IMG/VR virus record: IMGVR_UViG_3300049182_000124
Strand: one strand, 5' to 3'
Length of the DNA stretch: 64,000 bases
Source of the DNA: a virus
Of this stretch, positions 13,964 through 48,730 are shown in pieces; within the stretch, counting starts at the first letter, position 1, and every line of letters begins with the position of its first letter. The notes beneath the pieces were generated by a model. That model saw nothing but the letters and a program-made list of their open reading frames with translations, did no database searches and was not told where the DNA came from. Both the position numbers and the translations under genes were made by a program.

Positions 13964-15325
13964 ATGAGTTTTTTCGGACGCCTCAAAGACTTGGTGTCAC
14001 CACCCAAGGTGACGACCACGCGCGTCAACCTGCGTGAGAAGCCGCTCCACGAGCAGTTTCAACGCATCGGCGGCGGCCTGTCGCCAGCCGACGTTTCGCG
14101 CATCTTGCAGCGCGCTGACATGGGGCAGCCGGCCACGCTGATCGATCTCTTCAACGAGGGTCGACAGAAGGACGGCCACCTCCAGGGCATTTGCTACACC
14201 CGCGACATCGCAGTCTCGCTCTGTGGGCTCGAGTTCGTCGACCCCACGCCAGCGAAGGGCAAGGAAAAGCCGGCCCGGAAAGATCAGAAGGCGATCGACC
14301 TGTGCCGCCGCGCGCGGGACAAGTTTGACGACTTCCCGCGGCTGGTCGAGCACCTCACGGGTGCCTACGTGCCAGGGCACGCAACGGCAACGGTGCGGTG
14401 GGAGAAGACGAAAGACGGCCTCTTGCTCCCCGCGGAAGCTGAGCTCCTCAGTCCGCGCGACTTCATCTTCGCGCAGAAGACCGGCAAGCTCCGTTACCAG
14501 CGCGACCCCTTCGATCTCGAAGGCATCGACATCCTGGCCGAGAACCCCGGCCGCGTTGTGCAGGTGCAGCGTCGCATCACCGGCGACGTGCAGGTCCGCG
14601 AGGGCCTGATCCGCTGCCTGGTGTGGGCCGCGCTGTTCCGCAACTGGTCGCTCAAAGACTGGATCGCGCTCGGCGAAATCGGCTGGAAGCCCTGGCGGCT
14701 CGCCTCGTACAAGAAGGGCGCGAGTCAGAAGGACATCGACGAACTCATCGCGATGCTCGAGCGCCTCGGCGCTACCGGTGTCGCGGCGATCCCTGAGACC
14801 ACCGACATCAAGGTCGAGTGGCCCAAGGGCATGGCGCCCGGTACCGGCGGCTCGAGCACGCACCGTGAGCTGCTCGACACCATGGGCCGCGAGATGTCCA
14901 AGGCCGTACTCGGCCAGACGACGTCAGCAGAGCCTGGACCGAACGGTAGCCGCGCCTCGGATGAAGTGCGCGATAAGGTGCGTGCCGACATTCGCGAAGA
15001 AGACGCGATCGCCACCGCCGCAGCGCTCTACAAGCACCTGTTCCGCCTTGTCGTGTCCGTGAACCTTGGCCCTGATGTCGAGTGTCCGGTGCCGTGGTTC
15101 CAGACTGACGAGTCCGTCGATCAGCTCGCGTTCGCGCAAGCCGTGAAGAACCTAGCCGACGCCAAGGTGCGGATCCCCCAGAAGTGGATTCGCGACGAGC
15201 TTGGCGCACCGGAGCCCAAGGAGGGCGAGGAGTGCATCGGTGAGGCTGAGCCTGAGCCGGAGCCCGATGGCGAAGACCCCGAAAAAGACCCTGAAGCGGA
15301 CGACGCAGAAAAAGCCGCTGCCTGA
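13964..15325 (+). CDS. portal protein (Mu gp29/DUF935-like)
   Basis: GLIRCLVW...KDWIALGEIGWKPWRLASY, EMSKAVLGQT; follows TerL. Confidence 0.9.
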   Translation: MSFFGRLKDLVSPPKVTTTRVNLREKPLHEQFQRIGGGLSPADVSRILQRADMGQPATLIDLFNEGRQKDGHLQGICYTRDIAVSLCGLEFVDPTPAKGKEKPARKDQKAIDLCRRARDKFDDFPRLVEHLTGAYVPGHATATVRWEKTKDGLLLPAEAELLSPRDFIFAQKTGKLRYQRDPFDLEGIDILAENPGRVVQVQRRITGDVQVREGLIRCLVWAALFRNWSLKDWIALGEIGWKPWRLASYKKGASQKDIDELIAMLERLGATGVAAIPETTDIKVEWPKGMAPGTGGSSTHRELLDTMGREMSKAVLGQTTSAEPGPNGSRASDEVRDKVRADIREEDAIATAAALYKHLFRLVVSVNLGPDVECPVPWFQTDESVDQLAFAQAVKNLADAKVRIPQKWIRDELGAPEPKEGEECIGEAEPEPEPDGEDPEKDPEADDAEKAAA

Positions 15326-27647: not shown

Positions 27648-28559
27648 ATGCCCGCCTTCGATAGCGCACAGCGCGCGAGCTTCAATGGGATCGCCTTCCC
27701 GGTGAAGACCATCTCGATCAAGGGCAAATATCGGCACGCCGACCACGAGTATCTGCGCGTGCCCGGCGCCGTCATCGAGAAGCTCGAGCGCTCCGTCTAC
27801 AGCATCGAGATGCAGGCGGTGTTCGACACGAACATCCGCGGCTACGGGCAGCTCTGGCCTAACGGCGTCCAGGCGCTGCGCGCGCTGTACGAAGCCGGTA
27901 CGACCGGGCCGCTCGTGGTGCCCACCATCGGAACACTGCCGGCCTTTCAGCCCGACTGGGACCAGAACATTGAGATCGCTAAGGTCCGCTCAGGCGAGAC
28001 CATCAAGCTGAGCTTCAAAGAGGATCAGACCCAGAAGTTTCTGCAGCTCGCGCTTGTCCAGACACAGCAGCAGTCGCTGGCCACGACGACGGGCAACCTC
28101 GCGACGGTGCTGGCGAGCCTGAATCCTCCACCTGAGGATCAGTCGCTATTCGATGGCATCGTGAGCAGCGCGAACAGCATTTTGGCCATCAAAGATCAGG
28201 CGGATCTTTACGGTGGACTGCTGTCCGTGAAGCTGCAGACGCTAACTTCGTTGTTCGACCAAGCCGATAAGCAGCTCGAATCACTGAAGGACCCCGCGAA
28301 CTTCGAAGCGCTCGATGCGTTCCTCGAGATGTGGAACGCGGCCGTCAGGATGGCCACGAATCTTGCCGATAGCCCACGCGGCCCGCGCTCGTACACGACG
28401 CCGCGACAGATGAGCGTCTCGGACATCGCGACCGCCATCTACGGGAGCAGCGAACGGGCCCCCGAAATCATGATGAACAACCGGTTTTCTGACCCGTTTG
28501 CCGTGCCAGCGGGTGAAAAAGTCATCTATTTCGAGGACGCGGGCCTGCTCGCGGCGTGA
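27648..28559 (+). CDS. Mu gpN/DNA-circularisation-like tail tube initiator with C-terminal LysM/tail-X-like motif
   Basis: RASFNGIAFPV N-terminus; SVSDIATAIYG...IMMNN..DPFAVPAG C-terminus. Confidence 0.85.
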   Translation: MPAFDSAQRASFNGIAFPVKTISIKGKYRHADHEYLRVPGAVIEKLERSVYSIEMQAVFDTNIRGYGQLWPNGVQALRALYEAGTTGPLVVPTIGTLPAFQPDWDQNIEIAKVRSGETIKLSFKEDQTQKFLQLALVQTQQQSLATTTGNLATVLASLNPPPEDQSLFDGIVSSANSILAIKDQADLYGGLLSVKLQTLTSLFDQADKQLESLKDPANFEALDAFLEMWNAAVRMATNLADSPRGPRSYTTPRQMSVSDIATAIYGSSERAPEIMMNNRFSDPFAVPAGEKVIYFEDAGLLAA

Positions 28560-33593: not shown

Positions 33594-34532
33594 ATGCCGG
33601 TTTTCTCCGCCTTCACGCCATTCGGAGCGCTCCGCTTCTCGTCACGCCCTTCGCACGGTGAGCAGTTCTACCGCGAGATGGTGAAGTCGCTGGGTAGCGG
33701 CGCCAACTACTCCGACGACTTTGACAGCCTCGTAGCCGCCAGGCTCTATGCCTGGGCGATGGCGCTTGGGCGCTGCAAGTACGAGATCGAGCGACTCGGT
33801 CACCAATGGGACCCGCGCCGCGCGCTGGAGGGTCTGCCGGTGCTCGAGCGCGAACTCGGCATCGTTCCTGACCGGGGCGCAACCATCGCGCAGCGGCGCG
33901 CCGAAGTGGTGGTTGCGAGCCGCATCGCGCGCGGCGGCAACCGATCGAACGTCGAGGCGGTGCTCGGTGAGCTCTTCGGCGCTGACTTCGTTGCGTACGT
34001 CACCACACCGCCGGCCGATGCTGTGGTGTGGCCCGAGAATCCGCCCGACACGGGTGTTTACGACCGCCCCGGCTCGCCGCGCGCAGTCCTGCAGGCGCTC
34101 GATTCGGTCATTCACAACCACGCGCCCGTCGATGTGCGTTGCGAGCTCGTGGCCGGTGAGATCGGTAGCGTCAGGGCCGGGCGTCGGTTTGTGATCGACT
34201 CCGGCAACTACGCTCGGGTTGAGGCAGTCGAGATCGACAGCGTGAGTTCTGCAGGCGGCAATATCGTCATCACGGCAACCTTTACCCGTCCGCATACCAA
34301 GGGTGTGCTGCTCGCCACGGGGCGACAACCCAATCAGGCGACGAGCCGGCGCCACAACCTTTTCGTCATGTCCGCAACAGCTGCCGCAGATGCCAAGAAA
34401 CGCCGCCGCCTCCACAAGGCGGCGCACCGCTTGGTGCGCAGCATCAGCACATGGTCGGTTACGGACGGGTCCGGGCCATTCCTAGCCGGCGTTAGCCTGC
34501 CTGGTATCACCACGATCGGGGCACTGCCGTGA
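33594..34532 (+). CDS. baseplate wedge protein (Mu gp48/YmfQ/DUF2313-like)
   Basis: LPVLERELGI...TIAQRRAEV. Confidence 0.8.
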   Translation: MPVFSAFTPFGALRFSSRPSHGEQFYREMVKSLGSGANYSDDFDSLVAARLYAWAMALGRCKYEIERLGHQWDPRRALEGLPVLERELGIVPDRGATIAQRRAEVVVASRIARGGNRSNVEAVLGELFGADFVAYVTTPPADAVVWPENPPDTGVYDRPGSPRAVLQALDSVIHNHAPVDVRCELVAGEIGSVRAGRRFVIDSGNYARVEAVEIDSVSSAGGNIVITATFTRPHTKGVLLATGRQPNQATSRRHNLFVMSATAAADAKKRRRLHKAAHRLVRSISTWSVTDGSGPFLAGVSLPGITTIGALP

Positions 34533-42925: not shown

Positions 42926-43012
42926 CGCGCCAATCACCTCACCGCCGCGCTCGGCTCGCCCGTCGCCTCCCACGCCAGGCGGTGAGCGCGTGCGGTTCTT
43001 TTGGAGACAGAA

Positions 43013-43654
43013 ATGGAAACCGAAGCCATCGGCGCCATCGCGCGCGAAGTGTCACCCGCTGCCATAGCCGGAGCGATCGTCGCCGTCCTGCTGGCATTCA
43101 GCCGCAAGGCTCCGCTCATGACTCGACTGTGGGCGATGCTCCCGCACCCGTGGCCTGTCGTGATACCGGCGCTCGTCGCGCTGATCCCGCAGATCGTCGA
43201 TGTCATGAAGGACGTTTCGACCTGGGGAGGCTTCGCGCTCTCGCTGTTTACGGCGTTCTCGATCGCGGCGCCCGGCTTCGAGGCTGCGCGACCCAAGGAC
43301 AAGGATGACAAGGGACCGCCGAGCGGAAAGCCCGTTGGCCCCTGGGTGGATGTCGACGCCGAGAAGACGCCGCCGAGTTTGCCGGGCGTAACCCGCTTCA
43401 TCGCGATCGGCTGGATGCTGCTCGCTTGCGCGCTGCTCGGCGGCTGCGGCCTCTTCACGGCACAGGGCGCCAAGAGCGCGCAAGATCTCGCTCACGACCT
43501 CTGCGTACTGCACTACGGCAAGGCTAAGCCCGCGTTGTCGCTCGATGACGTCGCGCGCACGTATTGCAAAGACGTCGACCCCTGGCTCGAGGCCATCGTT
43601 GGCGCTGAAAAGCTGGGCGCCGCCAAGGCTGCGGCGAAGGCGCCGAAACGATGA
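43013..43654 (+). CDS. holin-like multi-TM protein with internal lipobox
   Basis: Three hydrophobic segments in the N-terminal half, then FIAIGWMLLACALLGG|C (Cys145). Confidence 0.65.
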   Translation: METEAIGAIAREVSPAAIAGAIVAVLLAFSRKAPLMTRLWAMLPHPWPVVIPALVALIPQIVDVMKDVSTWGGFALSLFTAFSIAAPGFEAARPKDKDDKGPPSGKPVGPWVDVDAEKTPPSLPGVTRFIAIGWMLLACALLGGCGLFTAQGAKSAQDLAHDLCVLHYGKAKPALSLDDVARTYCKDVDPWLEAIVGAEKLGAAKAAAKAPKR

Positions 43655-44379
43655 TCCGCCGCGGTCTCGGCTACCTGCCCGACGCGCCCAGCATCCACGA
43701 TCGGCTGTTCCGCGCGCACCCGAAGTCAGCAATCTCCCTGCCCGCGTCCGTTTCGCTCTGGGATGACCGCTGCGAGATCAAAGATCAGGGGCAGACAAAC
43801 AGCTGCGTCGGGCAGGCCTTCAGTCAAGGCATCCGTCTGGCGTATCTGTTCGCCGGCATCGACTGCCCGGAGCTGAGCGCGGAGTTCGTGTACTACCTCG
43901 CGCGTCTCCAGCACGGTGGCGAGAATGAGGACGTCGGCACATACCTGCGGTCAGGCGCTCAGGCCGTGAAGAAGTTCGGCGCGGCCACCGAGGAATCGTG
44001 GTCATTCGAAGAATGGCGCATCAACGAGAAGCCTAGCTTGGGCGCGCTCCAAAGCGCTTACGACCGCATGCGGGGCTACTACCGCATTGAGGAAGGCGAC
44101 ATCGACGGCGTGCGCAGGGCGCTTGCCGCTGGCTGTCCCGTCGTTGGCGGCTGGCAAGTATCGGAGTCCTTCCTTTATTGGGAAGGAGGAACGATCCCCG
44201 AGCAGACGAGCGATACCGTCGGTGGGCACGCGCTCTGTCTCGATGGGTACGACTCCGACGGCACCTTCACGGGAGTCAACTCGTGGGCCAGAGACTGGGC
44301 TGACGAAGGCCGCTTTCGGGCGAGTGAGCGTTTCGTAAAACAAGCAAATGACCTTTGGGCCCTGGACGTGACGCCATGA
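43651..44379 (+). CDS. papain-like C1A cysteine peptidase
   Basis: KDQGQTNSC (Cys52), GGHAL (His193), VNSWA..W (Asn210); N-terminal GLGYLPD..D. Confidence 0.92.
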   Translation: MIRRGLGYLPDAPSIHDRLFRAHPKSAISLPASVSLWDDRCEIKDQGQTNSCVGQAFSQGIRLAYLFAGIDCPELSAEFVYYLARLQHGGENEDVGTYLRSGAQAVKKFGAATEESWSFEEWRINEKPSLGALQSAYDRMRGYYRIEEGDIDGVRRALAAGCPVVGGWQVSESFLYWEGGTIPEQTSDTVGGHALCLDGYDSDGTFTGVNSWARDWADEGRFRASERFVKQANDLWALDVTP

Positions 44380-44639
44380 AAAGCCCGCTCATTGCTTTCC
44401 TCGCGCTGGCTTGCAGTACCGCTCCGCTGCCGCCCGTGCCGCCGGTGCCCGCGGGCGAAGCGTCGTGCGCTACCGCCTGCCGTCGCATGCAGGATTTGCG
44501 GTGCCCAGAGGGCGACAACACTCCAGCCGGCGCTTCATGCCTCAACGTCTGCTGGAACGCGGAGGAGAACGGCCTCACGTTGCCCGTGCGCTGCCTGACC
44601 GAGGCCAGGAGCTGCGACGCAGCGGAGCGCTGCCAATGA
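44376..44639 (+). CDS. Cys-rich lipoprotein (o-spanin candidate)
   Basis: MKSPLIAFLALA|C, Pro-rich linker, multiple Cys. Confidence 0.7.
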   Translation: MKSPLIAFLALACSTAPLPPVPPVPAGEASCATACRRMQDLRCPEGDNTPAGASCLNVCWNAEENGLTLPVRCLTEARSCDAAERCQ

Positions 44640-44803
44640 CCATCGCCGCCCTCCTGATCGCGCTCGTGATCATCGGCGTGGCAATGGCGCTCCTGCCAAT
44701 GGAACAGACGGTCCGTCGCCTGATCCTGGTGATCGTCGTGGTCGTGGCGCTGGTCTGGCTGCTCTCGGCGCTGGGTATCTTGCCGGCTGTGAGGTTTCGG
44801 TGA
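44636..44803 (+). CDS. two-TM small membrane protein (holin candidate)
   Basis: MTIAALLIALVIIGVAMALL...LILVIVVVVALVWLLSALG. Confidence 0.7.
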   Translation: MTIAALLIALVIIGVAMALLPMEQTVRRLILVIVVVVALVWLLSALGILPAVRFR

Positions 44804-44895
44804 GACGCGCGTTTGACAAAGTGCGCACGGGCATCGCGCTCGCACAGGTCGTTGGAAGCCTGCTGGCCTGGGTGATCCTGGAGACTAGACGGTGA
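44800..44895 (+). CDS. 31-aa single-TM peptide
   Basis: MRRAFDKVRTGIALAQVVGSLLAWVILETRR*; GTGA coupling at both ends. Confidence 0.5.
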   Translation: MRRAFDKVRTGIALAQVVGSLLAWVILETRR

Positions 44896-45650
44896 TCGCC
44901 AGGTACCTCCCCGACAAGCTCACGCCGCTCACGCCAGCGCAAGCAATCGTGGCGCTTCGCAGGGCGTACGAGGCTGTTGAGGGAGAGCGCCCGTCGCCGG
45001 ATTGTCTCGCGATCCACACGGCACAGAGTGCACTTGAGGCGGCCCGGTGGAAGTCGCTGCACAACTTCTGCTTCACGAATGCCAAGGCGAGCGCGAGCTA
45101 TCCAGGGCTCTTCTCTTGCTACAAGTGCAACGAGAAGCTGAAGGATGGGTGGCACTGGTACGTGCCGGAGGGTGAGCTCGTCGGTGGCTTCGGTACAGCG
45201 CTGAAAGGAGCGCCGCTTCCAGTGCCCGACGGTCACCCACAGACGCGCTTCCGTGCCTTCACCAACATCAACGCGGGCGCTCTTGACCACATGCAGCTCG
45301 TGAGGCGTAAGTGGCCCGAAGCGTGGACGGCCGCGCGTGGCGGTGACGTTGCGGGATTCGTCCACGGTCTCAAGATGCGCAACTTCTTCACCGCCGATGA
45401 GGCTCCTTATCTCAAGGGTGTGGCCAGCTTGATGCGCGAGTTCCTGCCACTGGTGAACCAGTCGAGCGCGACGCCGCCTGAGCCGCCCCCAGACGACGAG
45501 CAGACGCGCTGCGAGGCGCTTGCGTGCGTCGCACCGGATCCGGATCGGTATCTCCACACCGAGGCAGTAATCGCCAGCATGAACAGCATGGGTGGCGTGT
45601 GGGATGCTATCCGCAACGAACGAAACGCCGCGATGCGTGAGCCTGACTGA
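44892..45650 (+). CDS. endolysin, GH73 glucosaminidase/FlgJ-like
   Basis: AQSALE (catalytic Glu), FRAF, FVHGLK...FFTAD..Y. Confidence 0.8.
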   Translation: MIARYLPDKLTPLTPAQAIVALRRAYEAVEGERPSPDCLAIHTAQSALEAARWKSLHNFCFTNAKASASYPGLFSCYKCNEKLKDGWHWYVPEGELVGGFGTALKGAPLPVPDGHPQTRFRAFTNINAGALDHMQLVRRKWPEAWTAARGGDVAGFVHGLKMRNFFTADEAPYLKGVASLMREFLPLVNQSSATPPEPPPDDEQTRCEALACVAPDPDRYLHTEAVIASMNSMGGVWDAIRNERNAAMREPD

Positions 45651-45696
45651 GCAGCTTCGAAAACTCCTGATTCTTGCATCGGCGGGGGCCAATCCA

Positions 45697-46653
45697 ATGA
45701 CCCCCATGAGCGCACTGGCTCTCGCCACCTACACCCGCCCACGCTTGCGACTGATCATGCCCGAAGACACCGACCGCGTGACTCCCACTGATATCGCTCC
45801 GCCGCCCAGCGTGGACGAAGTTCCAATCACGCAGCCGCCGGGCAAGCTGGAGACGATGCTGCCAGCGCGCACGCCGAGCGACTTCAAGGAGGTCGCGGTC
45901 AACGATGTCCTTGCTGCGCAGCGCCAACTCCAGCGGGGGCTCGACGACTTGCTTGGACCCGGCGGGAGACTCGAGGCCCAGACCGCAGCCATCGCCGCCG
46001 TTGTCGACAACGCGGCCGCCAAGTGGGACGGAACCTACCGGCTACTTGCCGGCGAGATGCAAACGTTTCGCCAGCAGGTTGAGGCCAAAGACCGCGAGCA
46101 AGACACCAAGCTCGAGCGCGTCATGAGCGAGCTGGTGGCGTTGCGAGCGCGCGTCGAGGTGCTTGAGCGCGAACGCGGAGGCGGACGCGAGCTCAGCGAG
46201 GTTAAGTCGCTGCTCACGGCGCTGTTCCTACGCATGGAGATGCAGGAGGCCAACGGGGCGCCCGCCAAGGCGACGCTTTCGGGTCGCGTGATCCTCGTCG
46301 TCGAAAACGAGGACTTACTCGTCCGTACGCTCAAGCGCGTCCTGGTCAGCCGTGGCGCTCAGGTACTCACCGCGCGCAACTTCGACGAGGTCCGCACCGA
46401 GCTCAGCTCCTCGGCAACCGACTGCGTGCTACTCGACATCCGACTCGAGGCCGACGACGGGATGGAGATCGCCAAGTGGTTGATCGCTCAGCGCGCACTG
46501 CCCAAGGAGAGGATATTGCTCCTGACCGGGCACGCCAACCCCGAGCACCAGGCGGCGGCCAAGCGACTCGGGCTCGTGGTCCTCGAGAAGCCGATCGCTG
46601 CCGCGGATTTGGTTGCCGCGATCCTGTCGAGCATCGAGACTCCCTCCAACTAA
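45697..46653 (+). CDS. coiled-coil + C-terminal response-regulator receiver (REC) protein; start uncertain (45697-45757)
   Basis: VILVVENE, VLLDIRL (phospho-Asp), GMEIA, LLTGH, EKPI: complete REC fold motifs at ~46285-46650. Confidence 0.85.
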   Translation: MTPMSALALATYTRPRLRLIMPEDTDRVTPTDIAPPPSVDEVPITQPPGKLETMLPARTPSDFKEVAVNDVLAAQRQLQRGLDDLLGPGGRLEAQTAAIAAVVDNAAAKWDGTYRLLAGEMQTFRQQVEAKDREQDTKLERVMSELVALRARVEVLERERGGGRELSEVKSLLTALFLRMEMQEANGAPAKATLSGRVILVVENEDLLVRTLKRVLVSRGAQVLTARNFDEVRTELSSSATDCVLLDIRLEADDGMEIAKWLIAQRALPKERILLLTGHANPEHQAAAKRLGLVVLEKPIAAADLVAAILSSIETPSN

Positions 46654-46662
46654 CGATCACCG

Positions 46663-47526
46663 ATGACCCCGCCCGCACCGGGAGACAAGCCGCCCGGGCC
46701 GCGACGCGTTCCCACCGACCCGCAAATCATCGACCTAGAGCCGGAGCCCGAGGTGCTGGCTCGCCGGCGGTTCGACCGCCCGCAACCTCGCAGGGCGACG
46801 ATGCCGGGGCTGGCGCCGGTTAGACTGCCGGGGGCGCCGGAGCTGCCGGCCGAGTTGGCCCCGACCAAACCGGCCCCGTCAGCCGCAAAGGCTGGCCCTA
46901 CGCTGCGCGTGACGCCCGCGTCGGGGCAAGACGTCGCCCGCGTTGAGCCACCAGCCAGCGGGCGCGCAGAGGCCCGCGAGGCCCTGCTCGAAAGCGAGCT
47001 GACGAAGGCGCGTGCGCAGGTCGCGGAGCTCGAGCGGCAGGCCCGCGTCCGCACCGAGTCGCAGGGCCCTGGCCCCTACCAGGCCCCCGTCGTCGCCCAG
47101 GAGCGCCCCACCAGCGCCCCCGAGAGCGCCGCTGGAGATGGGTCGACCAAGGCGCTACGGAGCGCACTGACCAAGCTCGTGCTGGCCCTGGCGGCGTTCC
47201 TGGCGCTCCTGGGCGTGCCGCTGACCGCCTACATCCAGTCGCTCACTGCCAAGATCGACCGCTCGACCGCGCAGGCCGCCCAGGCCAACGCGCGCGCCGA
47301 CGCCGTCGAGGCCAGGGCAGAGACCAAGATCAAAGAACAGGTGGCCTCCGACAAGGAGTTCAGGCAGTACCGAGCGAACACCCGCGAGGTGTGGCGGCTG
47401 CTCGGGGTCGAAATGCCGAAGACCGAGGGCGATCCGGACCCGAATGACCTGGAGCCCTACACGCCATTGTGCGCTCCGGGAAAGGTTTGCCCGGGGCCGC
47501 AGCTGATTCTCAGGCGGGCACCGTGA
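46663..47526 (+). CDS. Pro-rich/coiled-coil/TM/coiled-coil membrane protein (i-spanin-like candidate)
   Basis: Single TM KLVLALAAFLALLGVPL mid-protein, heptads on both sides, C-terminal CAPGKVC. Confidence 0.6.
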   Translation: MTPPAPGDKPPGPRRVPTDPQIIDLEPEPEVLARRRFDRPQPRRATMPGLAPVRLPGAPELPAELAPTKPAPSAAKAGPTLRVTPASGQDVARVEPPASGRAEAREALLESELTKARAQVAELERQARVRTESQGPGPYQAPVVAQERPTSAPESAAGDGSTKALRSALTKLVLALAAFLALLGVPLTAYIQSLTAKIDRSTAQAAQANARADAVEARAETKIKEQVASDKEFRQYRANTREVWRLLGVEMPKTEGDPDPNDLEPYTPLCAPGKVCPGPQLILRRAP

Positions 47527-47738
47527 CCCCTCGCCGCAAGCCCGCCGTCCACATCCAGGACGAGGCGCTACCCATCCTGGCGCTCTGCGGCGCCCGATGG
47601 GAGTTGACACAGCATGGCGGCCGCGTGGCGAGCTCGACTGAGCCACCGGTCGTGATCGACGAGGTCGGCAGTGTGAACGCTGTGACTTGTCGCACGTGCC
47701 TCGACGTGCATCGGCGGCGGCTGCGCGCCAAGAAGTAG
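47523..47738 (+). CDS. small H/C-motif protein, last late gene
   Basis: GTGA coupling; VHI...LCG...VTCRTCL. Confidence 0.65.
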   Translation: MTPRRKPAVHIQDEALPILALCGARWELTQHGGRVASSTEPPVVIDEVGSVNAVTCRTCLDVHRRRLRAKK

Positions 47739-47773
47739 CTCGCCTCACCTCTCCGGTAATTCCGGATACCTCA

Positions 47774-47805
47774 CCCCTGTCACCTCACGGTGGCGGGGGA
47801 TTTTT
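47774..47805 (+). terminator. intrinsic terminator of the late operon
   Basis: CCCCTGTCACC-TCAC-GGTGGCGGGGG 11-bp stem (two G-U pairs) then ATTTTT. Confidence 0.75.
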
Positions 47806-47902
47806 CGCGTTTTGTCAGCGCCAGCCCGACGCTCCACCCCGCTGGATCTGACGGGTCAAGGATTGCGGAGCGGGGCTGGCTCCTACCTATCGGGCGGGGG
47901 AG

Positions 47903-48730
47903 TCACCCAGTTGCGTACCGCTTGCGATCTTTTCCGTCAGTGAGGTGTTTCCAGCGCCGTCCCGTGACGGCTTGCCAAAGCGCTCCGTAACGGACGCCCA
48001 ATTCACGAGCAACCTCGGAGAGTCTCTCGCCGGCATCCCAGCGCTCGCGCGCCAGGAGGATCGTTGCGTCACTTAGAACGTGGTTGACTCGACTTTCTCC
48101 TGGTGCTCGGTTGCCGTTGCCGCGCCCCTTGGCAGCCATGTCGTCGGAGTTGTCTTGGGTGGTGCCCACGAATAGGTGGTCTGGCCGCACACAGGCACGG
48201 TTGTCGCACTTGTGGCAAACCAGTAGACCGGTAGGGATAATGCCAACGAACAGCTCGTACGACACGCGGTGCGCTGGTCTTCGTCTCGTGCTGCCGTAGC
48301 GTTCCGGATCCTTGATGCCTTTCCAGACCCAGCACGGTCCCAGCTCGGCACGGACAACTGGCCCGGCCTTGTTAACGCGAGACATGAAACGCTCCTCCGT
48401 GAGTGCGACTGAGCACCTTTTGCTGCAGTGCTTCACACGGCCGCGTCGCACATCGTTCAGCCAAGCTCGAAACTCTTTCTTGCAGACCGGACACACGCGC
48501 ATAGCGCTGCCCCAGCTCTGGAAGTGCGCCACTCTGGCGGCCTCCTTTTCGGCAGTCTTGAGCTTTTCGGCTGCGCGGCGAGCAATTGCGGCAGGCGTTG
48601 CCTTTTTAGCTCTCCTGTACGCTCGATAGCATTCGCGACAGGTCCCGCGCAGGCCGCTGCTATTGCAGGCGTCGCGAGCCATCTCCAGCACTGACTTGTC
48701 CTCACCGCACTTGTTGCAAGTTAATCCCAT
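47903..48730 (-). CDS. HNH (HNH_3) homing endonuclease with N-terminal Zn fingers and C-terminal HTH
   Basis: AHRVSYELF...VCHKCDNRACVRPDHLFVGTTQDNSDDM. Confidence 0.9.
   Translation of the reverse strand: MGLTCNKCGEDKSVLEMARDACNSSGLRGTCRECYRAYRRAKKATPAAIARRAAEKLKTAEKEAARVAHFQSWGSAMRVCPVCKKEFRAWLNDVRRGRVKHCSKRCSVALTEERFMSRVNKAGPVVRAELGPCWVWKGIKDPERYGSTRRRPAHRVSYELFVGIIPTGLLVCHKCDNRACVRPDHLFVGTTQDNSDDMAAKGRGNGNRAPGESRVNHVLSDATILLARERWDAGERLSEVARELGVRYGALWQAVTGRRWKHLTDGKDRKRYATG

Follow-up and report, generated by a model that had tools for sequence, protein, structure and literature searches.

A dispensable receiver domain in a conserved gene next to the endolysin gene of an uncultured soil phage: a possible adaptor for a neighbouring membrane protein

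The gene that follows the endolysin gene in a phage contig encodes a protein, referred to here as X (P0001), in which a known receiver (REC) domain occurs in a new architecture and a new genomic context. We propose, with a probability of roughly 0.4, that X is a cytoplasmic adaptor that docks on the product of the next gene, Y, and that the X–Y pair acts at the lysis stage, with the receiver as modulator.

The window, that is, the whole stretch of DNA analysed, comprises 64 kb of a 69.9-kb contig. GC3-guided ORF selection over these 64 kb gave a + strand gene block from approximately 447 to 47738, with the - strand carrying the genes between 47903 and approximately 63800. PHROGs matches in the window included a terminase, a Mu-type portal, a protease or scaffold, a major head protein, a tail sheath, a tape measure, and a baseplate, and additional Pfam matches included DnaB, RuvC, RecT/YqaJ, and methylases. 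The window DNA recurred at an identity of at least 99% in several soil and rhizosphere metagenome runs. The DNA of positions 43000–48000 had no match among 50,697 phage records, and the portal and terminase were less than 33% identical to those of any cultured phage. The phage-type genes, the recurrence in soil metagenomes, and the absence of a similar deposited phage therefore indicate that the source, judged from its sequence, is an uncultured, contractile-tailed phage of soil. No complete tRNA was found by ARAGORN. The preliminary description of this DNA had assumed a myxobacterial host, for which we obtained no support: the DNA comes from soil metagenomes, and Myxococcus phages were absent among the matches listed or tallied in the DNA, portal, terminase, and endolysin searches. 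The label “myxophage” was dropped as unsupported, without being disproved. Two host-directed scans of genome contigs gave only three distant relatives of the endolysin, all in uncultured MAGs.

The genes at the end of the + strand block are as follows.

44636..44803, + strand: holin candidate, 55 aa, two transmembrane helices (Kyte-Doolittle peaks 2.9 and 3.1)
44892..45650, + strand: GH73/FlgJ-like peptidoglycan hydrolase (endolysin), 252 aa, from profile, fold, and homologue domains
45697..46653, + strand: protein X, 318 aa
46663..47526, + strand: protein Y, 287 aa, beginning 9 nt past the X stop codon
47523..47738, + strand: small Cys-containing ORF, approximately 71 aa, the last + strand gene of the operon
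47774..47799, + strand: terminator-like hairpin of 11 pairs (8 G-C) followed by ATTTTT, the first strong one, located after the last + strand gene

The ORF of X starts with ATG at 45697, with GGGGG approximately 10 nt upstream; the N-termini of the homologues are consistent with this start. The parts and active-site residues of X are located as follows.

45697..45873, + strand: residues 1–59, disordered Pro-rich tail (AF2 pLDDT <50)
45877..46251, + strand: residues 61–185, predicted helices 61–86, 91–160, and 164–185 (AF2)
46288..46638, + strand: residues 198–314, REC domain (Pfam Response_reg, AF2, Foldseek)
46303-46305, + strand: E203, the DD1 position, by alignment to solved receivers
46306-46308, + strand: N204, the DD2 position (codon AAC), by alignment to solved receivers
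46435-46437, + strand: D247, acceptor Asp in LLDIRL, aligned with the acceptor Asp of 3jte and NtrC1
46525-46527, + strand: T277, the Thr position at the end of strand beta-4
46588-46593, + strand: K298-P299, the Lys position at the end of strand beta-5

The preliminary description had recognised a REC domain in X and had asked for a check with the Response_reg HMM. Pfam Response_reg matched residues 199–309 with E=5e-16 (59.3 bits against a cutoff of 30.2). The AF2 model of X, which was built with a nine-sequence alignment, showed a (beta-alpha)5 fold of five strands and five helices over the REC domain with a pLDDT of approximately 76–90, and its top Foldseek matches were all solved receivers (ArcA, RR468, DivK, NtrC1, PhoB, and CheY) with target TM values of 0.8–0.9. 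The presence of the domain was thus confirmed by both profile and fold. The only other Pfam match in X at E≤0.01 was cREC_REC, inside the REC domain; cREC (PF20274) was rejected as the identity of the domain, its 21 bits being below the cutoff of 27 and far under the Response_reg score. The best NCBIfam likenesses of the REC domain were the receiver of NahK/ErcS-type hybrid kinases, ActR/RegA, and the single-domain CpdR, all far below their cutoffs. PHROGs 731, 5982, and 20458 matched with E=7e-11, 8e-12, and 4e-8, respectively.

The acceptor Asp, the Thr, and the Lys reported from the sequence were found at the expected loop positions, and D247, T277, K298, and P299 were invariant in all nine aligned REC-bearing members of the family. 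Alignment also bore out the unusual acidic pocket, “EN”, as E203-N204. The DD2 residue was Asp in five of the nine members, with DD as the acidic pair in P0006, P0118, and P0127 and ED in P0106 and P0110, and Asn in the other four (the window copy, P0004, P0005, and the divergent P0109). The AAC codon of the window copy is one base from the Asp codon GAC. According to a 2025 review of the receiver field (PMC12632262), DD2 contacts the metal directly, receivers have an acidic residue at each DD position in 100% of cases, and a pseudo-receiver is a computationally recognised receiver that is missing at least one of the five active-site residues, with Asn as a common replacement at DD2. X has the acceptor Asp, Thr, and Lys of a true receiver and lacks only the second acidic residue, Asn (N204) standing in its place. 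Because DD2 is Asn, the window copy is formally a pseudo-receiver by the strict published definition, inside a family that appears to be ancestrally canonical, and for the same reason its phosphorylation is doubtful; N204 may abolish it. The phosphorylation-site residues of the family REC domain nevertheless appear, from their conservation, to be under constraint. The earlier proposal that a host kinase phosphorylates X is consequently weakened by the Asn at DD2, but it is not removed, because four of the five active-site residues are strictly conserved. As had been noted, no kinase is visible near X: Pfam scans of the neighbouring genes and of the 20 largest other ORFs detected neither a histidine kinase nor an Hpt domain, and the flanks of the relatives' loci likewise yielded no gene for a kinase or an Hpt protein.

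In regards to the N-terminal part, X was described as a long coiled coil fused to the receiver. A helical region of about 125 residues was indeed predicted (pLDDT 60–77), with a core motif that is invariant in close relatives. The coiled-coil character held only for a leucine-zipper-like stretch of about three clean heptads at approximately 139–158, and a 3.5-residue periodicity over the helical region was not significant against shuffles in a crude test. The preceding tail carries the short motifs xLRL[IM], TPTDxAPP, TQPP, and TMLP, which are kept in REC-bearing and REC-less relatives. The identity of X to the distant members P0109, P0118, and P0127 was 30–64% in the tail and 32–47% in the REC domain versus 17–28% in the helical stalk. 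Pfam gave nothing for the N-terminal 198 residues even at E≤10, apart from one chance-level match, and neither an NCBIfam family nor a usable ESM Atlas match was obtained for the N-terminal part. The sole PADLOC match to X was a weak one to PD-T4-6 (residues 138–314). X has no real transmembrane segment. Its description as an orphan protein without a DNA-binding output domain agrees with these searches, since Pfam and NCBIfam detected no domain besides REC.

X belongs to a small family that was found only in uncultured soil-phage contigs. Word-based searches gave only five relatives, and 29 proteins were obtained from 1.84 billion cluster representatives with a profile built on the N-terminal 190 residues. 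Among the profile matches that were scanned with Pfam, a C-terminal Response_reg domain was found in P0106, P0109, P0110, P0118, and P0127 and none in P0105, P0108, P0111, P0119, and P0131. P0005, which stands for the clade of the window, carries the domain too. The closest REC-less relative, P0007 (54% identity over the N-terminal part), stops cleanly where the receiver would start, and its Y gene begins 8 nt later. In the more distant phages L003, L005, and L007, the X locus is occupied by a REC-less Pro-rich helical protein of approximately 205 aa. Because REC-less orthologues occupy the same locus, the receiver appears to be a dispensable, optional part of the family. The REC-bearing members span the nearest to the most distant profile matches and share the unusual motifs DCVLLD and A-x-W-L, so that one old fusion of REC followed by repeated losses is the simplest history suggested by the sequences. 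No deposited phage with an X homologue was found by tblastn of the whole protein against the 50,697 phage records, and tblastn of the REC domain alone against the same records (E≤1) gave weak matches only, mostly to unannotated records or contigs of ordinary bacterial genes. Scans of IMG/VR with the X alignment and with the endolysin alignment found nothing.

The position of X among the surrounding genes is also conserved. The order endolysin, X, Y, and small ORF was kept in nine related contigs. In every contig with enough flank, namely L001, L002, L011, L014, L015, and a JGI contig, the endolysin gene is followed by X with or without REC, a Y-like gene of approximately 300 aa, the small ORF, and then a strand switch. 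The spacing from X to Y is 5–9 nt in most related contigs; it is 148 nt in L001, and a reverse-strand gene lies between the two in L015.

Upstream of X, the product of 44892-45650 is assigned as a GH73-type endolysin from sequence profiles and a fold model. Single-sequence searches of Pfam and PHROGs gave no match for this protein, and tblastn against the 50,697 phage records found no deposited phage. Among its 97 homologues, several carry PF01832 (glucosaminidase) or PF01471 (peptidoglycan-binding), and a 26-sequence profile (alignment A4) matched the FlgJ hydrolase 2zyc with E=1.7e-5. The AF2 model had a pLDDT of 88, its nine best Foldseek matches were all GH73 enzymes with a probability of 1.00, and Glu49 was invariant across the 26 aligned sequences. 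The ORF that ends 88 nt upstream of the endolysin gene is a candidate holin of the Thivi_2564-like family: it matched NCBIfam NF041949 with E=8e-7 and 29 bits, under the cutoff of 33, and its equivalent in the JGI relative carries PF28077.

X is co-oriented with the endolysin gene, and neither a promoter-like nor a terminator-like site was found in the gap between them. X thus lies in the same predicted transcription unit as the holin candidate and the endolysin gene, in a conserved position, and the hairpin at 47774-47799 is the putative end of this late/lysis transcription unit. A 151-nt contig from an RNA library matched 46584-46734 perfectly, across the stop of X and the start of Y, and weakly suggests co-transcription of the two genes, DNA carry-over being possible.

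Y was previously regarded as spanin-like, which placed X between an endolysin and a spanin gene; the endolysin stood up to analysis and the spanin did not. The N-terminal part of Y is Pro-rich and comprises approximately 170 residues with a short coiled coil at approximately 100–130. It is followed by a single TM helix at 173–191 and a helical C-terminal part of approximately 95 aa with two Cys. Because these N-terminal 170 residues are conserved in relatives, they are not an artefact of the start call. An i-spanin has an N-terminal anchor followed by a periplasmic coiled coil, whereas the TM helix of Y lies at 173–191 of 287 residues. In regards to a possible o-spanin, no lipobox was found among ORFs of at least 50 aa in other frames within 46663-47526; the ORF next after Y contains Cys and is not a lipoprotein, and the sole lipoprotein-like ORF (44355-44639) lies approximately 2 kb upstream of Y. 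Y was therefore rejected as a canonical spanin, its TM helix not being N-terminal and an adjacent or embedded lipoprotein partner being absent. Y has no family in Pfam, PHROGs, NCBIfam, or PADLOC, and it is kept at the locus in L001, L002, L003, L005, L011, L014, and L015. X and Y were also considered as paralogues and rejected (hhalign probability 1.9%). The start codon (GTG) of the following small ORF overlaps the stop of Y (GTGA), and its homologue in L014 (4413-4622) shares the motif PPVVIDE..SVNAV.C..CL.

We predicted the complex of X (residues 55–318) with the cytoplasmic part of Y (residues 1–172) in three runs with three controls. The median score was 0.32, against 0.01 for the best control, which falls in the class of “weak support”. 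The same interface was obtained in all three runs, between residues 135–183 of X and residues 102–130 of Y, and consists of the zipper-like segment of X laid against the short coiled coil of Y. Among 80 solved complexes, 58 attained the passing mark of this score, as did two of 110 mismatched pairs; passes at 0.60 or below comprised only seven of the 80 solved complexes and both of the passing mismatches. The value of 0.32 belongs to this weakest class of passes, and models of this kind readily place helices next to each other. The prediction is weakly in favour of binding of X to Y.

The reading that we prefer joins these observations. X would be specific to one lineage of uncultured soil phages and would be made late, sharing its transcription unit with the holin candidate and the GH73 endolysin. 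The conserved motifs of its disordered tail would serve in docking; a helical stalk follows, and then the C-terminal receiver, which would be an optional regulatory add-on. Because REC-less orthologues exist, the core function of X would not need the receiver. The distal stalk (approximately 135–183) would pair with the short cytoplasmic coiled coil of Y, giving an envelope-anchored X–Y complex at the lysis stage, and the activity of the complex would depend on the conformation or oligomeric state that the receiver imposes on X. In relatives with DD or ED, the input would probably be a phosphoryl group that the invariant Asp receives from acetyl phosphate or from a kinase or Hpt protein of the host; where DD2 is Asn, as in the clade of the window, the receiver is likely to be poorly phosphorylated or to work without phosphorylation. 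A role of X in lysis timing is suggested by gene position, and neither X nor Y showed homology to known lysis proteins in Pfam, PHROGs, NCBIfam, or PADLOC. The preliminary description went further and proposed lysis gated by host signals. The genomic side of that proposal, a conserved place by the endolysin gene with no intervening terminator, was upheld, and its signalling side was weakened by the dispensable REC domain and the Asn at DD2. We regard it as distinctly improbable that X reads phosphorylation from a host two-component system or phosphorelay and passes it to Y by coiled-coil contact, with host physiology gating the last step of infection.

Three other explanations compete with the adaptor reading. 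The receiver could mimic that of a host response regulator or hybrid kinase and act as a phosphate sink or decoy, so that a host pathway for stress, development, or defence is shut off late in infection, in which case the adjacency to lysis genes would be incidental. X is an orphan receiver without an output domain, no kinase gene was found in the phage ORFs scanned, the best NCBIfam likenesses (all far below cutoffs) include a hybrid-kinase receiver, and the Asp, Thr, and Lys are strictly conserved in the family; moreover, phage proteins that perturb host two-component systems are on record, for example PIT4 (PMC10714779). A sink, however, requires efficient phosphotransfer, and DD2 is Asn in four of the nine members, including the window copy. 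REC-less orthologues at the same locus also argue against it, late expression is an odd timing for host takeover, and the tight, conserved coupling of X and Y together with the conserved N-terminal part favours a structural partner. We consider a sink or decoy rather unlikely. A similarly low probability is given to a receiver that is independent of phosphorylation, serving only in dimerisation, docking, or ligand binding with no two-component input. Asn is the commonest replacement at DD2 in pseudo-receivers, and bacteria are known to join a pseudo-receiver to a coiled coil in one protein, as in FrzS (cited in PMC12632262); the same Asn change occurs in the divergent P0109. Against this stand the Asp, Thr, and Lys-Pro that are invariant in 9/9 members and the canonical DD or ED of five of them, a pattern expected under selection for phosphoryl chemistry. 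In addition, Asn is one base from Asp and can still give the metal an oxygen ligand.

X and Y could also form a regulatory module unrelated to lysis, with Y as an anti-sigma-like membrane sensor and X as its cytoplasmic partner, for example in a partner switch of the PhyR/NepR type that controls phage or host transcription through the ECF-like sigma factors of relatives. The genes after Y in L007 and L015 encode Sigma70_r4 proteins with weak r2 matches (E=2e-7 and 2.7e-6; ECF-like), and these neighbours hint that the role may be in regulation instead of lysis. The topology of Y, with the N-terminus inside, a single TM helix, and a periplasmic tail, is typical of anti-sigma factors, and the receiver is C-terminal in X as in PhyR. 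Yet tblastn found no sigma homologue in the window, X and Y match no sigma, anti-sigma, or NepR family in Pfam or NCBIfam, and a transcription regulator at the far end of a late operon would act very late. This explanation seems to us quite improbable.

Comparison with known systems shows where X departs from them. Canonical receivers (CheY, NtrC, PhoB, and ArcA; PF00072) share with X the fold (TM 0.8–0.9) and the loop positions of the Asp, Thr, and Lys-Pro. X differs from them in that DD2 is Asn rather than Asp or Glu and the REC domain is C-terminal to an unrelated helical region; it is also encoded by a phage, carries no DNA-binding or enzymatic output domain, and has no partner kinase that we could find. 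The Myxococcus pseudo-receivers FrzS and AglZ, like X, combine a receiver fold with a long, possibly oligomerising helical segment. The receiver is N-terminal in FrzS and C-terminal in X, and the likeness is one of architecture. Because its other four active-site residues are intact and its close relatives are canonical, X is better seen as a borderline case than as a pseudo-receiver that degenerated long ago. PhyR consists of a sigma-like domain and CheV of a CheW-like domain, each with a C-terminal REC. X resembles both in having a protein-interaction module N-terminal to the receiver, with an output that is likely to be partner binding rather than DNA binding, but no similarity to sigma or CheW domains was detected in its N-terminal part.

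T4 rIII and P1 LydB are soluble or cytoplasm-facing lysis regulators that are encoded with lysis genes and act on a membrane lysis protein. To our knowledge, no two-component receiver occurs in either of them or in N4 gp62. The latter is likewise a cytoplasm-facing regulator, encoded with lysis genes, that acts on a membrane lysis protein (PMC12642591). X resembles the three only in its proposed role on Y, and family-library searches gave no sequence or domain similarity of X to them. What the paper on N4 lysis calls a “Receiver domain” is part of the pinholin and unrelated to REC (PMC12642591). Receivers do occur in phage genomes, as in the Spo0A homologues of gut phages, which are phage-encoded response regulators (PMC10294663), and in PHROGs 731, 5982, and 20458. 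Unlike X, these combine REC with a DNA-binding or other domain and have not been described beside lysis genes. The statement that X has no described equivalent was borne out by our literature search, which found no report of a phage receiver gene linked to lysis genes.

The fitness of a phage depends strongly on when it lyses its host. The lysis regulators known to us (antiholins, T4 rI/rIII, and N4 gp62) sense superinfection or the state of the membrane, not host signalling pathways. If X does connect the two, it would found a new class among lysis regulators, and phage lysis would for the first time be seen wired directly to two-component signalling. Because the phage is uncultured, the finding is of limited practical use at present. 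The family nevertheless provides, at one locus, a natural comparison set of canonical DD/ED receivers, borderline pseudo-receivers with Asn, and REC-less orthologues, and it could show how true receivers become pseudo-receivers, which is an open question in the field (PMC12632262). A diverged phage lineage has kept a receiver under selection at the lysis end of its late operon, which points to the possibility that some phages hear or disturb host phosphorylation signals at that stage.

In the window, the following genes resemble those of phage Mu.

Window 13964-15325, 27648-28559 and 33594-34532: Mu-like morphogenesis genes (portal in phrog_113, DNA_circ_N and a sub-threshold Mu Gp48 match)

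Despite this likeness to phage Mu, DnaB, DnaT-like, RuvC and RecT/YqaJ functions are also coded for on the contig. Judged by this coexistence, the phage is a mosaic and not a transposable phage.

A holin candidate was found directly 5′ of the endolysin gene.

Window 44636-44803 (+): 55-aa protein with two transmembrane helices

The protein resembles the Thivi_2564 family (NF041949) below the cutoff (29 bits vs 33), and the relatives carry a gene for 54–55 aa at the equivalent position upstream of the endolysin. This product is likely a holin.

The junction between X (the receiver-domain protein) and Y (the single-TM protein) was examined in RNA and DNA data. A 151-nt contig from a rhizosphere metatranscriptome library gave a perfect match (window 46584-46734) that runs from the stop of X into the start of Y, and the region was present at at least 99% identity in independent soil and rhizosphere DNA runs, with no variants reported. 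In one related phage contig, L015, the junction is interrupted.

L015:6957-7913 (−, opposite to X and Y): gene for a 318-aa protein inserted between X and Y

Cys-rich motifs recur in the inserted protein, and its C-terminal motif NxxNCRW..QNxN looks like that of an HNH or homing endonuclease. This opposite-strand gene in L015 demonstrates that physical separation of X and Y is possible.

Downstream of Y, the relatives and the window carry the following genes.

L007:7071-7658 and L015:8933-9544: sigma-like proteins of ~200 aa, 3′ of the Y gene
Window 47523-47738 (+), with a counterpart at L014:4413-4622: small conserved ORF of ~70 aa with 3 or 4 Cys and a basic C-terminus

The L007 and L015 proteins look like ECF-type sigma factors, since they match Sigma70_r4 (E=2e-7 and 2.7e-6, respectively) and, weakly, Sigma70_r2; tblastn found no homologue in the window. 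The start of the small ORF overlaps the Y stop (GTGA), and it is the final gene before a terminator-like hairpin (47774-47799). Its product may be a small zinc-binding protein.

In regards to X itself, residues 138–314, which comprise the distal stalk plus the receiver, weakly match PD-T4-6, a candidate anti-phage defence protein in PADLOC (E=2.2e-5, 21.5 bits); this is probably mere receiver-to-receiver domain similarity. The disordered tail carries short motifs.

Window 45697-45873: X tail with xLRL[I/M], R-x-TPTD-x-APP, TQPP and TMLP

These motifs are kept although identity in the helical part falls to 17–28%, and they also occur in the relatives that lack the receiver (L005:5970-6587 and L007:5796-6416). 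Some FHA domains bind the pattern pT-x-x-D, which TPTD fits; this points to a docking site for some partner protein.
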